Sequence record: LR746311
Length of the DNA stretch: 64,000 nt
Source of the DNA: Shigella phage vB_SsoM_113
Direction: 5' to 3' (one strand)
Part shown: positions 45,909 through 51,616 of the stretch, piece after piece
How positions within the stretch are numbered: position 1 is the first letter of the stretch
Layout of the letters: the number at the start of each line of letters is the position of its first letter
Translations under genes and position numbers: made by a program
Notes under the pieces: generated by a model
Told to the model about the DNA's origin: nothing
The model's database searches: none
Seen by the model: only the letters and a program-made list of their open reading frames with translations

Positions 45909-46057
45909 GTCATAATCTTGAAAAAGTAATCGAGCATAATGTAGCTCAGGAACGTAAGTCGTTCAAGGAATTCGTAGAAAAAATTTTTGAAGAAAATACC
46001 ACAGACCAGTTTACAAATCAAGCGTCTGATGATATTATAACAAAGTCAACTAATTGA
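45905..46057 (+). CDS. hypothetical protein (50 aa)
   Basis: ATGA-coupled; not in track. Confidence 0.35.
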   Translation: MSHNLEKVIEHNVAQERKSFKEFVEKIFEENTTDQFTNQASDDIITKSTN

Positions 46058-46069
46058 GTGGTATAGTTA

Positions 46070-46342
46070 ATGAATAAAAATATTGATACAGTTCGTGAAA
46101 TTATTACTGTTGCGTCTATTTTGATTAAATTTTCCAGAGAAGATATTGTTGAGAATCGCGCTAATTTTATTGCATTTCTGAATGAGATTGGAGTAACGCA
46201 TGAAGGTAGAAAGTTAAATCAGAATTCATTCCGTAAAATTGTTTCTGAATTAACTCAAGAAGATAAGAAAACCCTCATCGACGAATTCAACGAGGGTTTT
46301 GAGGGTGTATATCGATATCTAGAGATGTATACGAACAAATAA
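46070..46342 (+). CDS. asiA: anti-sigma70 factor AsiA
   Basis: 90-aa product MNKNIDTVREIITVASILIKFSREDIVENRANFIAFLNEIG, recognised as T4 AsiA. Confidence 0.93.
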   Translation: MNKNIDTVREIITVASILIKFSREDIVENRANFIAFLNEIGVTHEGRKLNQNSFRKIVSELTQEDKKTLIDEFNEGFEGVYRYLEMYTNK

Positions 46343-46999
46343 TTATTTAGCCCTTCCTAATATTCTGGCCGCCTGAGCACATATTGATTCAAGGCGGTCA
46401 TTACTTATATGATCATTTCTATACCAGTACATGGTTATTGTTCCAGCATAGATATTATCCAAATTAAAATATGGACAACTGTACATGTAATTTATTTCGG
46501 GAGTAGGCTTTTTAGTTGGTAAAAAAGCAAATTTTGAGTTTGAATAATAATGACGTCCATTTAAATGAACTGCATATTCATCCATAGTTTTATCAACAGG
46601 ATATCCTCCAAGTGATTTTTCACTTATTGTTGAAGGTAGTTTTCCTTCGTATGCTATAATATCAACAAAATAGTTTAAGTTTTTAGGGCGGAAAGAATAC
46701 ACCGCACTAAAGTCTGCCTCAGATGATATATGAACTATCTGGAGTTGTTCCAGGGCGACAGATTCAAAGCGTGCATTTCTTTCCTTTTCAATAATTTCAC
46801 TGTATGTTTCATACTTTGATTGCTTATAGTACTCAAAGAAACTATCTCCCCTATACCAAACAATCGCCATTATAAACAAAAGAATTACGACAGCTACCCG
46901 GGAAGCAAGAACTTTCCCGGTAGCATTATCTTTGAACAAGCGATCTAGAACACCAAACAGAATATCAGAGGGCGAAAATGATATTCTAGGTGCTGCCAT
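46343..46999 (-). CDS. t: holin (gene t)
   Basis: 218 aa, single N-terminal TM segment plus large periplasmic domain; AAGGAGGG RBS. Confidence 0.93.
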   Translation of the reverse strand: MAAPRISFSPSDILFGVLDRLFKDNATGKVLASRVAVVILLFIMAIVWYRGDSFFEYYKQSKYETYSEIIEKERNARFESVALEQLQIVHISSEADFSAVYSFRPKNLNYFVDIIAYEGKLPSTISEKSLGGYPVDKTMDEYAVHLNGRHYYSNSKFAFLPTKKPTPEINYMYSCPYFNLDNIYAGTITMYWYRNDHISNDRLESICAQAARILGRAK

Positions 47000-47029
47000 A
47001 GACCCTCCTTTTAAGGGTATTTATTTAAA

Positions 47030-47812
47030 TTATACTCTTGGACCATATATTGCTCCAACGTTTTGCCATGTCGGTGTAGACCCTATGACGGCATAACCAG
47101 CAGCTCCGCCATCGTATTCATATCCTTGACCACGAATATTACATCTACCTCCTGCGGAGCCAACTTCACCACCAGACCCGCCGTTGTAGATACCGTTCAC
47201 AGACCCTGCGCCTGGCGCAGAAATAGTACCAGCAGTTGCTCCTGATTGCATATCAATAGATCCGCCCGGTGCGCCAAACGGACGACCGCCGCCACCGCCA
47301 AAGGTCAATCTCATTTGTGAAAAAGGAGAATAATACCCGCCGCCACCGCCGCCACCGCCGCCAGCAATAGCTCCACCATTATTAATTCTTAGTCTCCCAC
47401 CAATATCATTTTGAATACAATGACCCCCAGCTGAGCCAGGACTATTGCTACCGCCATTCCCGCCACGGCCATACATCGTTACACCATGTATGTTCAACTG
47501 AACATATTCATTCGGTGTATCTCCGTACATGAAGAATAAAGGAACATCTTTAGAATATGATACTAAATCTCCAGTGATATTAAACACTATAGGTGCACTA
47601 CCTGCCTCAAAACATCTATCTCGGAACCATTGACCATTGAAGTTATGGTCTGCTCCAAGTGTATGAATAATTTCTCTTGAGCGACCTGCAAATTGACTCA
47701 TCCAGCAAGGAACACCCAATCTTAATTGACCAGCTGCTTGACTCATCCAGCGCTGACCCGTTTCATTTACGGCTGAACTTCCAATCCAACCAGGAACACC
47801 AACTACTGCCAT
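47030..47812 (-). CDS. 38: gp38 tail-fibre tip adhesin with glycine-rich motifs (T2 type)
   Basis: 260 aa; conserved N-terminus [13 protein letters not shown]; repeated poly-Gly blocks (GGGGGGGGG, GGGGG). Confidence 0.9.
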
Positions 47813-47824
47813 AATTTATCTCCA

Positions 47825-47841
47825 AAGGGGCAATGCCCCTT
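47825..47841 (-). other. intergenic stem-loop between genes 37 and 38 (aaggggc-aat-gcccctt)
   Basis: 7-bp perfect stem, no U tract; probable mRNA structural element. Confidence 0.4.
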
Positions 47842-47845
47842 GTTA

Positions 47846-50800
47846 TTAGAATTTAAAGTATTTACCAATTTTGCGAGCAATTTTAGTGAAGAAAGGCGTT
47901 TTCAATTCTTTAATTTCTTCACTCATTTCCTGAATGGCCTTAATTAAAAGAGCATTCACAGCAGAGTTAGAAATTGTTAAAATTTCTTCTGGGTTATCCT
48001 GAGATCCGACACTAGAAGTGCTAACAGCTTCCGGTAATACTTCTTGCAAATCCTGTGCGATAATACCAATCTCATGGCCGATAACTTCGCGGTCAGAAAG
48101 AGATTTAACTTTATCATAGGTTTTAACTTTGAGTTTATTTACCTTATCCACCGCATTCTCTTCGTAGTCTTCAACATTAATTTTCAGACGACGGTCAGAA
48201 CGAATATAAACGTCGTTACAATATACAGCAGCACCAGCAGTAAAATCACCGTTAAATGAAAATCCAAAATCATTCCCACCCACATGCAATACAACATAAG
48301 GATTACCACCTCCAGCATGAGCACCCATCGCCGCAATGTGCTGTTCGCCCCAATGAGTAGCTTTCCAAATGTTATATGCTTGATTTCGTGAGTCCTGACA
48401 GTCTACTAACAATCCAGCCGGACGATCTCGCCAGTCTACCCATGCACCACCGGAAATATTACCACGGATAAGAGCGTATTCACCATTATATGGAACACGC
48501 TCTCCCGCTTTAATCATTGCACCCTGGAAGTGATGACTAAATGAACCCCCATGATTATTGCGAATATGTAAAATACCCTCATCTGTAGCCCAGATAACAG
48601 CCTTTTCCGTATCGCTATCATCTCTAAACCAGATATGGCGTGCGCCAGAGGTTTTGACGGTTATTCCGTTAGGTCCATGCACGGTCAAAGCACCAGATAC
48701 ATCAAATAAAACGGTGTCATCTGTCCTACGTTCAGTATAGAAGTGATAACCTTTGGAATCACCGACTTCCATCACTGCCGCGCGACCAACTTCTGAATTT
48801 CCCCAATTATTGATATGGAATCGTTCAGAGCTATTATTCATCTGATTTAGGTATAATGTACCATCAGTGAATGTTTCGCCAAAGAAACGAGTTTTAATTG
48901 CACCAGTCGCTAAAGTACGTTCAGTAGAAAAATGAACTCCTTTGCTGTCTTCTAACTGAATAATGTTATCACGCGCATTATTACTATCACCCCAATGGTT
49001 AAATTTAAAATAATCTCGTGATCCTAAACGTCCAGCGTCAAAAGTCATCAAGCCTTTTATATTAATATCACCACCAAAAAATGCGGTGAGAGAATCACGT
49101 TTTAATTTTAAAACGTTAGCACCACTAGTACCACCTAAAGTAACATCACCAGTTCTCAATTCATAACGGAAAGGTCTATTTGTATTAAAGTTTCCATCTT
49201 GATCATCTTCGTCGGTGGAAAGAATATAAAGACTCTCTCCATCATTACGGAAAATTGCGCCAAACTTACCGCCGTACATTTTAAATGCATTCAATGAGCG
49301 GAATTTAACTTCTGTTTTAAAAGTGGTAGTGTTATTAAGGTTAACAGTAGAGTTAAAATTGGTAGGAGCACCGAAGTTAACTGCGCCATTAAAATCTTGC
49401 TGCGCTGTCCATTTGTGGCGACCATCTTCAAGAACAACACGACGAACTGTGCAAGTTCTATTTCCTGAATTACCGAATACACGAACGACAAAATAACGGT
49501 AGTTTGTCTGGGATACAGTACCACGCCAAACCTGAACAGTACGCCCTGTGCTAGTATGTTCGCTAGGACCGACGGAAAACATAACCAAGTTTCCATCAAT
49601 CGTCCCCCAATTCATATTTGCTGGCATGTTCTTTATTTTGTTCAAAGGAACGCTAAACATACTACCAGGGACAAAATCAAAGGTTTGCCAATCTAACTCC
49701 GCTAATTGAGCTTTAATACCACCCATACCCAAAGTAATTGGCAGAGAATAAGATGTATATACTTCGTTCCATGTACCCCAAACACCATTAGTGTATGCAC
49801 GCTCAAAAATACGTCCGCGAGTAGTTGTACCTGTTCCGGCAGTAGTAAATTTTTGGAAAATAGCACCACCAGAAGCACGCTGTTTAACTTCTAGCAAACC
49901 AATAATAACGGCTGGTAAACCTTCACCTGTAGGGCAGTTAATAACGGCATCAGTGCCTAAAATATTATATAACCCAGGAGTTTTAAAATCATTCAGGTTT
50001 CCATCATAGAAAGTCGCTGGTGTGACATTACCGACTTGTTGCCACGGTCCCCATTTAGGAGCAGTAGCATTCCACGCGGCAGTAAGACAGCGAGTATAAA
50101 CAACACCAAACATGGTTGTATATCTTTGCGTACGAGAATAGCTTCCCCCTTCATATACTTCCAAAAGACCTTTAGCTGACGATCCCTCTTCTGGGAAATT
50201 TCTGTCAAAGGTGGCAATGGAATTTGAACTATTCCTCCACAAGCCAAAGTGTTCAGCACCTCCTAGATCATTAAGATCAATTGTTGTTGACAGTGGACGA
50301 GTACCGGATTGAATATTTCGCCACACACTCCACGGACCATTTACTCCGTTCCATGTAGCAGTCAAGGAACGAATATAAACATTTCCGTATCTGGTTGTAT
50401 ATCTCTGAGTACCAGCAAATTGACCGGCCACAAATACTTCTAGCACACCTACAGCATTTTCTTCTGGAAATTTATTTGCTGGTTGAGCGTTGGTTGAAGT
50501 TGCTTTCGACCAAACTCCAAGATATTCTTCAACAGGCCCATACTCATCTAAATTAGCATCAACCGGTAATTCGCCGTTATTTTTTATAAACGTTGTGCTA
50601 TTGACATTTATGTCAGATGGAGTTAGCGTGATATCTTTTGACCCATCAAAGGATATACCATTAATTTTTCGTGCTGTTTTTAATTTCGTTGCAGTTGCAG
50701 CGTTACCTGTTAAATTTCCAACTATACTTCCATTAACAGTTAAAGAACCATCAATTGTTCCTCCATATTTTAAACCTAATTCTATAACACTGCCTGAGTC

Positions 50801-50926
50801 ATCTTTTGTGAAAATTGTTTTATCTTTTAAATTAATAGCCAATTCACCTTCGGCTAATACTGAAGCAGCAGGACGTTGACCTGCAGTTTTGCTTCTTTTA
50901 AATTGTATTTGTTTTAAAGTAGCCAT
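47846..50926 (-). CDS. 37: long tail fibre distal subunit gp37 with C-terminal intramolecular chaperone-like domain
   Basis: 1026 aa; N-terminus [22 protein letters not shown]; C-terminus YIRSDRRLK ... resembles self-cleaving chaperone domains. Confidence 0.95.
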
Positions 50927-50934
50927 AAGTCCTC

Positions 50935-51585
50935 TTAATAATAGCCGAAATCTTGAACAGAATCCTTAATCACGATTTGGTCAAATCGTGGAACATGTGA
51001 GGGTTGAGATGCAGGATTCTGCGAGAAAAAGTTTGGCGCTGTTAAATTACCTGTCATGGTGTCACCTTTACGCAAAACTCTAGAATTCGCATTTGCCGTA
51101 ACAGTATTTATTGCTCCATCGACATAATCTTTACGAGTAACATCAGACGCTGCTGAAGGAGTAGATGTAACAGTTACAGATGGAGCCGTTACAGCCCTAG
51201 TAAATGTTGTCAAACCTTCTGGCGTAATAGTAATTTGTCCAGTAGTGATTTCACTACCTGCAGGTCTAAAACTAATACCACCAGAAGAGCCACCAACTAC
51301 AAGAGTATTACCGGTACCGCCACCAGAACGAATTCGAATGGGGGTTTCATTATTACTTAATTGAAGATAACTATTTACCCCGTAATTAATAGTAATTGGA
51401 CCGGTGTAAGTACCACCATTAGCTTTAGAAACGAAATCGTTATCAGCTGCCTGTGGTTTGTTATATTCTGAATATATTTTAAATGATTTGTAGAGTACAT
51501 CGTCACCGGCTGAATTCAATGGAAAATTTCCTTGATGCCAAATGACAGATCCACCCACAGTTGAACCTACTTTTAAATCAGCCAT
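50935..51585 (-). CDS. 36: long tail fibre distal connector gp36
   Basis: 216-aa product [24 protein letters not shown]. Confidence 0.9.
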
Positions 51586-51608: not shown

Positions 51609-51616
51609 TATTTATA
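51609..51616 (-). promoter_or_regulatory. late promoter TATAAATA (gene 36)
   Basis: exact TATAAATA on minus strand about 24 nt before gene 36 ATG. Confidence 0.7.

Follow-up and report, generated by a model that had tools for sequence, protein, structure and literature searches.

Organization of the Distal Tail Fiber Locus

Which type of receptor-recognition apparatus does Shigella phage vB_SsoM_113 carry at the tip of its long tail fiber, and which host receptor is it likely to recognize? We addressed this question in a stretch of 64,000 nucleotides of the phage genome (sequence record LR746311, hereafter the window), where the relevant genes lie at positions 47030-50926. With a probability of about 90%, this region encodes the receptor-recognition module at the distal end of a T2/T6-type long tail fiber of a Tequatrovirus, and we see no sequence evidence that would contradict this model. 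The module is of an already known, ordinary T-even type, whose architecture, cleavage mechanism and variable-loop role have been established for T2, T6, and S16, and it adds no new biology. Its value lies in a practical, testable receptor prediction for this phage, which can be used in the design of phage-therapy cocktails and in receptor-prediction models, and in a clean natural case of recombination at a glycine-rich motif that reshuffles adhesin specificity.

The genes are arranged on the minus strand in the order 36-37-38-t, with gene 38 immediately following gene 37 and preceding the holin gene t, and the same order is found in phages Paracelsus, T2, AR1, JK23, EV240, and RB10. A scan for the late promoter motif TATAAATA returned a single match, upstream of gene 36, and none directly upstream of genes 37 or 38. 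The intergenic spacer between genes 37 and 38 (47813-47845) contains the Shine-Dalgarno sequence GGAG of gene 38 (47820-47823) and a hairpin rich in GC, GGGGCATTGCCCC (47827-47839). Seven other T-even phages have a hairpin at this position, with a different sequence; the 71-nt context of the hairpin in the window is not significantly more stable than its shuffled versions (z = -0.75). A search of positions 46000-49000 against Rfam at gathering thresholds gave no match. Three short antisense ORFs (46932-47096, 47063-47245, and 48044-48259) are unsupported and were taken as by-products of GC-rich glycine codons.

The Gp38 Adhesin

Gene 38 (47030-47812, minus strand, stop codon at 47030-47032) is an ATG-initiated ORF of exactly 260 amino acids, the length given in the preliminary description, and encodes a 26.4-kDa protein that belongs to the receptor-recognizing adhesins of the T2 type. 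Residues 47-260 match the Pfam GP38 adhesin family PF05268 (3e-71, 240 bits against a cutoff of 25), residues 1-42 match the Gp38_N family PF21721 (1e-20, 73.7 bits, cutoff 25), and the protein is assigned to phrog_2056 (6.5e-113). Among proteins of known structure, its sequence matches the receptor-binding domain of PP01 gp38 (PDB 9v85, 4e-80) and S16 gp38 (PDB 6f45_D, 2.5e-49), whereas BLASTP against the gp38 assembly chaperone of T4 reveals no similarity (E = 2.0). The initial view of this protein as an adhesin and not a T4-type chaperone is thereby upheld; its designation as T2-type holds for the adhesin family, although T6 gp38 (93% identity) is a far closer relative than T2 gp38 (52%).

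The AlphaFold (AF2) model of gp38 (pLDDT 86.9, pTM 0.79) predicts a three-domain fold with a polyglycine-II sandwich, and its only structural matches in the PDB are the same two adhesins (E-values from 1e-26 to 1e-22, TM-scores of 0.75-0.88), with 0.88 for 9v85, normalized to the target, and 0.76-0.80 for 6f45_D. [quoted passage not shown] It contains Trp9 and Trp22, both invariant in 39 homologs, and the nearly invariant Trp37, which is at least 90% conserved in a 10-sequence alignment; in S16 gp38, three conserved tryptophans serve as prongs. The pLDDT of this domain is low (39-66), which fits a domain that would become ordered on binding. Residues 43-115 (47468-47686), which comprise the linker and the N-terminal portion of the central β-helix domain and align to 9v85 and 6f45_D, are modeled as β-strands with pLDDT above 90 and are 100% identical to their counterparts in RB10, JK23, Bas36, and M1.

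The region of glycine-rich motifs (GRM) and hypervariable segments (HVS) spans residues 116-236 (47105-47467) and contains 36% glycine, compared with 24% in the protein overall. It is modeled with pLDDT above 90 and with no helix or strand assigned by DSSP, as expected for a polyglycine-II sandwich, from which the receptor-binding loops are predicted to project. In alignments of 10 and 39 sequences, invariant glycine columns alternate with variable stretches in the C-terminal half of the protein. In the window, variable stretches of 12-26 residues are bordered by GxGG motifs. The approximate boundaries of the individual elements, in the direction of translation, are 47336-47362 for the G9 run, 47300-47335 for HVS2, 47261-47299 for GRM3, 47183-47260 for HVS3, 47147-47182 for GRM4, and 47111-47146 for HVS4. 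The alternation of glycine blocks and variable segments that had been read from the sequence at first sight is therefore real; however, only two of the blocks are long poly-glycine runs (G9 at residues 151-159 and G5 at residues 172-176), the other glycine motifs being short. The C-terminal segment (residues 237-260, 47033-47104), which is kept in all aligned adhesins, closes the β-helix.

The Gp37 Chaperone Domain and Fiber Tip

Gene 37 encodes the distal subunit of the long tail fiber, a protein of 1026 amino acids with a Gp34_trimer-like domain; at the DNA level it is 89% identical to its homologs in RB32 and RB33 and 98.8% identical to that of LF73P3. The interval of the preliminary description (47030-48210) ends at gp37 residue 906 and covers the last ~120 residues of the protein, for which a self-cleaving, chaperone-like C-terminus had been suggested. 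This suggestion agrees with the match of residues 910-968 to the Peptidase_S74 family PF13884 (1e-14, 55 bits, cutoff 22), which starts exactly at Ser910. The putative nucleophile Ser910 (48197-48199) and Lys915 (48182-48184) form a Ser-x4-Lys dyad within the motif YIRSDRRLK (residues 907-915, 48182-48208), and the sequence DVYIR^SDRRLK aligns with the mapped cleavage site of S16 gp37, DLNVS^SDRRIKK. The dyad spacing is the same as in endoNF (S911/K916) and MyRF (S587/K592). The serine, aspartate, arginine, and lysine of SDxRxK are invariant in T2-type gp37 proteins, and the dyad serine and lysine in seven gp37 proteins.

Comparison with S16 gp37 (6f45_A, 1e-11) covers mostly the chaperone domain, and the region upstream of it aligns to the β-helix tip of the S16 fiber. 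A PDB search with the last 147 residues of gp37 at E-values up to 10 identified only S16 gp37, the phage tail fiber 8jov, and, weakly, the ICA domain of MYRF (7dc3, 0.02), with no endoNF or T5 chains among the matches. S16 gp37 loses its last 113 residues by autocleavage at S^SDRRIKK, and the gp37 proteins of T2 and T6 are reported to be cleaved and then capped by gp38. By homology, these observations support a self-cleaving intramolecular chaperone at the gp37 C-terminus (residues 910-1026, 117 amino acids and 13.2 kDa, encoded at 47846-48199 on the minus strand with the stop codon at 47846-47848), which would be released by autoproteolysis after trimerization. The mature subunit would then comprise residues 1-909 (48200-50926, minus strand, predicted mass 99.7 kDa) and end in DVYIR (residues 905-909, 48200-48214), its predicted new C-terminus and docking platform for gp38. 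An equal role was proposed for the DVYIR pentapeptide of the fPS phages via alignment to the S16 cleavage site.

The loss of self-cleavage would leave the S74-like domain on the fiber, with gp38 bound elsewhere or not at all. Some S74 homologs do require residues upstream of the domain, such as Arg897 in endoNF, and the gp37 tip upstream of the predicted cut is divergent; however, the dyad residues and their DVYIR^SD context are unaltered and kept in every phage compared, homologs are cleaved in S16, T2, and T6, and a chaperone domain 98% identical and a tip 91% identical to those in the window occur in the viable, characterized phage EV240. We regard such a loss as very improbable.

An even smaller chance, close to negligible, is left for a T4-type arrangement, in which gp38 would be an assembly chaperone absent from the virion and the retained gp37 C-terminus would bind the receptor. 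The gene order 37-38-t and the gp37 length of 1026 residues, coincidentally the same as in T4, are the only features in its favor. In addition to the lack of similarity between the two gp38 proteins and the membership of the window protein in the adhesin family, the gp37 proteins themselves differ: the N-terminal 66 residues are 79% identical to T4 gp37, and the rest of the alignment consists of weak local matches in the shaft. T4 gp37 contains the Collar and fiber-repeat tip domains and has no S74 match above the E-value limit of 0.01, whereas the window gp37 has the S74 match and no match to Collar or Phage_fiber, and it is devoid of the T4 needle domain. A T4-type tip, composed of a gp38 chaperone and a gp37 needle domain, was rejected by this direct comparison with T4 gp38 and gp37.

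We propose for the T2/T6-type module the following mechanism. The C-terminal Peptidase_S74 chaperone would assist the trimerization of gp37, and once the trimeric β-helix has folded, the Ser910/Lys915 dyad would cut the Arg909-Ser910 bond. Departure of the 13-kDa chaperone would expose a flat gp37 tip ending in DVYIR, onto which one gp38 monomer may dock via its N-terminal helical domain with Trp9, Trp22, and Trp37 and stay in the virion. The glycine-rich motifs in the C-terminal half of gp38 would assemble into the polyglycine-II sandwich, and the hypervariable loops jutting from it would bind the primary receptor.

Mosaic Origin of the Module

The module appears to be a natural recombinant, in which the gp37 tip, the chaperone domain, and the N-terminal half of gp38 are of the EV240/RB32 type and HVS2-HVS4 are of the RB5/T6 type. 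Relative to these two OmpA phages, the gp37 tip is 91%, the chaperone domain 98%, and gp38 residues 1-115 are 97-100% identical, whereas from the poly-glycine motif onward (HVS2-HVS4) the window carries loops of the Tsx type and protein identity in the GRM/HVS region is 76%. At the DNA level, sliding identity switches at ~47380, beside the (CCGCCGCCA)x3 repeat at 47337-47363, and identity to the EV240/RB32 type drops to 58-78% over positions 47379-47092. The recombination junction probably lies at this repeat, which encodes poly-glycine. With its Tsx-type loops, including Tyr231, on an RB32/EV240-type tip and N-terminal half, the module would be a natural equivalent of the gp38 swaps made in the laboratory.

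Predicted Primary Receptor

The receptor was left open in the preliminary description; the present comparisons point to the nucleoside channel Tsx as the most likely primary receptor of gp38, since its loops hardly differ from those of T6, RB5, JK23, and Paracelsus (Bas36), all of which are experimentally Tsx-dependent. For JK23 and Bas36, RB-TnSeq identified the receptors as Tsx/HepI. The protein is 100% identical to gp38 of Tequatrovirus LF73P3, known from a public genome, and shares 256 of its 260 residues with RB5 gp38, the overall identity being 97.7% for JK23 and 97.3% for Bas36. In the GRM/HVS region, identity to the Tsx binders reaches 97-98% (RB10, JK23, and Bas36) and 94% (T6). RB5, JK23, and Bas36 have the same HVS2 and, for the most part, the same HVS3, and the protein shares the HVS1-4 set of the Tsx-specific, T6-like subgroup.

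A T2/T6-type adhesin could nonetheless have a primary receptor other than, or in addition to, Tsx, i.e., OmpA or both Tsx and OmpA, as a result of a few HVS differences. The residue at position 231 in HVS4 is Tyr in the window and Ser in T6, JK23, Bas36, RB10, and RB5, positions 202, 210, 213, and 234 also vary, and the gp37 backbone resembles that of the OmpA-using phages RB32 and EV240. One or a few substitutions are known to retarget gp38: the single HVS substitution Q206L switches RB68 from OmpF to OmpW, and PST, which differs from T6 in a few residues, also uses OmpA. However, nearly all Tsx binders have one common HVS set, the OmpA binders EV240 and M1 are more distant from the window in the GRM/HVS region (76 and 63% identity, respectively), and in gp38-bearing phages the porin is determined by gp38 and not by gp37. 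We consider a receptor other than Tsx alone unlikely. If Tyr231 or the other substitutions broaden or shift the specificity, as in PST and RB68, which we regard as improbable for this module, the window would encode a new specificity variant.

The proposal that the gp38 loops set the host range stands for primary-receptor specificity and does not extend to the whole host range. This narrower role is supported by published gp38 swaps, in which an exchange from HVS2 onward turned specificity from Tsx to OmpA, and by RB5/RB32 chimeras.

Comparison with Known Receptor-Recognition Systems

The closest known adhesins are those of T6, RB5, JK23, and Bas36, which are similar to the window gp38 in length (260-261 amino acids), N-terminal attachment subtype, and position between genes 37 and t. 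Their HVS1-4 are near-identical to those in the window, and the overall difference amounts to four to nineteen substitutions (97-98.5% identity outside T6). In contrast, the gp37 fibers of JK23, Bas36, and RB10 are of a different type, with 29-50% identity over the last 100 mature residues. As the gp37 tip in the window is unlike those of the Tsx phages, the docking compatibility of the two proteins is suggested by the shared DVYIR end and by EV240, which combines the same tip with the same N-terminal domain.

The S16 tip complex (PDB 6F45) shares with the window the three-domain gp38, composed of the Trp prong domain, the β-helix, and the polyglycine-II sandwich, and a gp37 that ends in an S74 chaperone, with the cut, predicted in the window, before SDRR(I/L)K. 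However, the two gp38 proteins are only about 43% identical, the gp37 tips align weakly (E about 1e-11, chiefly within the chaperone domain), the cut follows a Ser in S16 and, by prediction, an Arg in the window, and the S16 receptor is Salmonella OmpC. [quoted passage not shown] A poor fit between the gp38 N-terminal domain and gp37 is known to abolish function.

More distant relatives are the S74 domains of the K1F endosialidase endoNF, the T5 L-shaped tail fiber (LTF), and MyRF, which are likewise located C-terminally after a trimeric β-helix and start with a Ser-x4-Lys dyad. Their relationship to the window gp37 is seen only via the Pfam profile and the weak MYRF match. In systems of the latter type, release of the domain simply matures the enzyme or fiber, whereas in the window gp37 it is proposed to create the docking site for a second protein.

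Organization of the distal tail fiber locus

The genes of the locus lie on the minus strand in the order gp36 (50935-51585, 216 aa), gp37 (47846-50926, 1026 aa), gp38 (47030-47812, 260 aa), and holin t (46343-46999, 218 aa). The interval 47030-48210 thus covers the whole of gene 38, a 33-nt spacer, and the final ~120 codons of gene 37, with position 48210 falling at gp37 aa 906. Judged by its DNA, the region is that of a Tequatrovirus, being 99.3% identical to Tequatrovirus LF73P3 (OZ035756) and partially matched in hundreds of T-even genomes. An exact T4 late-promoter consensus, TATAAATA, is located at 51609-51616 (minus strand), 24 nt upstream of the gp36 start; the whole window contains five such matches, which is not an enrichment over shuffled sequences. 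Since no match to this consensus immediately precedes gene 37 or gene 38, the genes 36-37-38(-t) are probably co-transcribed late. The GC content reaches 0.50 at 47000-47499, compared with ~0.33-0.38 in the flanks, and the GC skew is strongly negative there, probably because GGN glycine codons are so frequent on the minus strand, and not because of foreign origin.

The 37-38 spacer (47813-47845, minus strand) carries a GC-rich hairpin at 47827-47839, followed by the GGAG Shine-Dalgarno sequence of gene 38. The stem-loop GGGGC-AUU-GCCCC, positioned between the gp37 stop codon and this ribosome-binding site, has counterparts at the equivalent position in RB10, JK23, Bas36 (phage Paracelsus), EV240, T2, AR1, and T4, with differing stem and loop sequences, including a CTTCGG loop in T2, AR1, and T4. 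The predicted fold of a 71-nt segment containing the spacer is not significantly stable (z -0.75). The hairpin may serve as an mRNA-stability or expression-tuning element for a 3:1 gp37:gp38 stoichiometry. The Rfam scan of 46000-49000 returned no family at threshold, and antisense ORFs of 54-71 aa were dismissed as lacking support.

The gp38 adhesin

The preliminary description interpreted gp38 as a 260-aa adhesin built of poly-Gly blocks rather than a T4-type assembly chaperone, and both the stated length and the architecture are borne out. Glycine accounts for 62 of the 260 residues (24%), and for 36% of residues within aa 116-236, with a G9 run at aa 151-159, encoded by the perfect tandem repeat (CCGCCGCCA)x3 at 47337-47363, a G5 run at aa 172-176, and several GxGG motifs besides. 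Chance composition is excluded as the source of this signal by the Pfam matches to GP38 (3e-71) and Gp38_N (1e-20). The protein also matches the sequences of two crystal structures, the receptor-binding domain of PP01 gp38 (9V85, 4e-80) and S16 gp38 (6F45_D, 2.5e-49). The AlphaFold2 model, based on a 39-sequence alignment, has a mean pLDDT of 86.9 and a pTM of 0.79; pLDDT exceeds 90 across the glycine-rich region, where DSSP assigns no secondary structure, as expected of polyglycine-II helices. In a Foldseek search of the PDB, the model significantly matched only 9v85 and 6f45_D (E 1e-26 to 1e-22, TM 0.75-0.88), all other matches having E >1. Low confidence is confined to the N-terminal ~40 residues, which fits a docking domain that would become ordered on the gp37 trimer. 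The three tryptophans described as prongs in S16 gp38 have conserved counterparts here in Trp9, Trp22, and Trp37.

A T4-type chaperone is rejected; BLASTP against T4 gp38 found nothing (E=2.0). The tip of the fiber is likewise not of the T4 type: T4 gp37 has a Collar and fiber-repeat tip and no Peptidase_S74 match, whereas the gp37 studied here has the S74 domain and no Collar.

Intramolecular chaperone of gp37 and predicted docking of gp38

The gp37 C-terminus, with the sequence YIRSDRRLK at aa 907-915, had been proposed to resemble a self-cleaving intramolecular chaperone. This proposal agrees with the match to Peptidase_S74 (PF13884) at aa 910-968 (1e-14, 55 bits, cutoff 22), which starts exactly at Ser910, and with a Ser-x4-Lys spacing equal to that of the catalytic dyads of endoNF (S911/K916) and MyRF (S587/K592). 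Residues 862-1010 align with the gp37 construct in the S16 structure 6F45 (about 1e-12), and the C-terminus weakly matches the MYRF ICA domain (7dc3, E 0.02). The motif (D/N)VY(I/V)R-SDxR(L/V)K is kept in seven T2-type gp37 proteins, while the tip preceding it is highly divergent. In S16, the last 113 residues of gp37 are autocleaved between two serines at DLNVS^SDRRIKK, exposing the gp38 docking surface, and cleavage after DVYIR has been predicted in related phages (PMC7917993); a 1986 work on T2 gp37 processing is among the references of PMC3157838. By homology, we infer that gp37 would be cut between Arg909 and Ser910, releasing a 117-aa fragment of 13.2 kDa and leaving a 99.7-kDa mature chain with a DVYIR end.

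The T6-type N-terminal domain of gp38 (95-100% identical) occurs in different phages beside three gp37 tip types, which share only 29-50% identity across their last 100 mature residues (48200-48500) and have in common only the DVYIR end. Since the same domain accompanies such divergent tips, their sequences suggest that the docking surface is essentially this conserved end, as already proposed (PMC7917993). The published lock-and-key view, in which the C-terminus of gp37 and the N-terminus of gp38 pair by subtype, accommodates these tips awkwardly in its strict form, unless the key consists of the last few residues only.

Predicted receptor

Characterized adhesins were compared with gp38 over its whole length and over the region of glycine-rich motifs and hypervariable segments (HVS) alone (aa 116-236). 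An identical gp38 is present in the public genome of LF73P3. The next closest proteins are those of RB5 (256/260, 98.5%; Tsx), RB10 (98.5%; same species as RB5, no receptor reported in the literature examined), JK23 (97.7%; Tsx/HepI by RB-TnSeq), Bas36 (97.3%; Tsx), and T6 (93%; Tsx), followed by EV240 (85%; OmpA), M1 (80-84%; presumably OmpA), AR1 (69%; OmpC type), and T2 (52%; FadL). Over aa 116-236, identity is 97-98% for RB10, JK23, and Bas36, 94% for T6, 76% for EV240, 63% for M1, 51% for AR1, and 44% for T2. In published swaps, replacing the part of gp38 that starts at HVS2 turns a Tsx specificity into an OmpA one, and the RB5/RB32 chimeras act likewise, in agreement with the earlier suggestion that the variable loops set specificity. 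Because of these experiments and the regional identity to Tsx phages, Tsx is the probable receptor and our best prediction. However, gp38 can be retargeted by a single HVS change or by a few (RB68 Q206L; PST versus T6), and residue 231, a Ser in the Tsx-type adhesins used for comparison (T6, RB5, RB10, JK23, and Bas36), is a Tyr in this protein.

A database cluster of 155 members differs from this gp38 by 1 aa; its NCBI representative is named 'receptor-recognizing protein [Bacillus cereus]', an implausible label for a coliphage adhesin that probably reflects a contaminated assembly.

Mosaic origin of gene 38

Sliding DNA identity in 60-nt windows was calculated against EV240, RB10, JK23, and Bas36. 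From ~48640 to ~47380, a block that takes in the tip and chaperone domain of gp37, the spacer, and the first ~145 residues of gp38, most windows are 92-100% identical to EV240; RB10, JK23, and Bas36 diverge throughout the tip and over the greater part of the chaperone domain (to about 47977) and then reach at least 90%. From ~47380 to ~47090 (HVS2-4), identity to EV240 falls to 58-78%, while RB10, JK23, and Bas36 show 90-98% in all windows but one. This pattern marks a recombination junction inside gene 38 at ~47380, by the poly-Gly coding repeat, with EV240/RB32-like DNA upstream and RB5/RB10/JK23-like DNA downstream. The position of the switch agrees with a published proposal of glycine-rich motifs as recombination hot spots. 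A 303-aa database protein from an 'E. coli' assembly is a hybrid ORF, joining gp38 aa 1 to ~155, through the poly-Gly run, to a gp37 tip and S74 chaperone; either recombination at the Gly repeat or an assembly error produced it.

Comparison with known systems

Both the observation and the interpretation in the preliminary description are sound, and the probable Tsx receptor, the predicted R909^S910 cleavage site, and the recombination junction at the poly-Gly motif extend them. The module itself is an already known, textbook combination of a T2/T6-type gp38 adhesin and a gp37 intramolecular chaperone.
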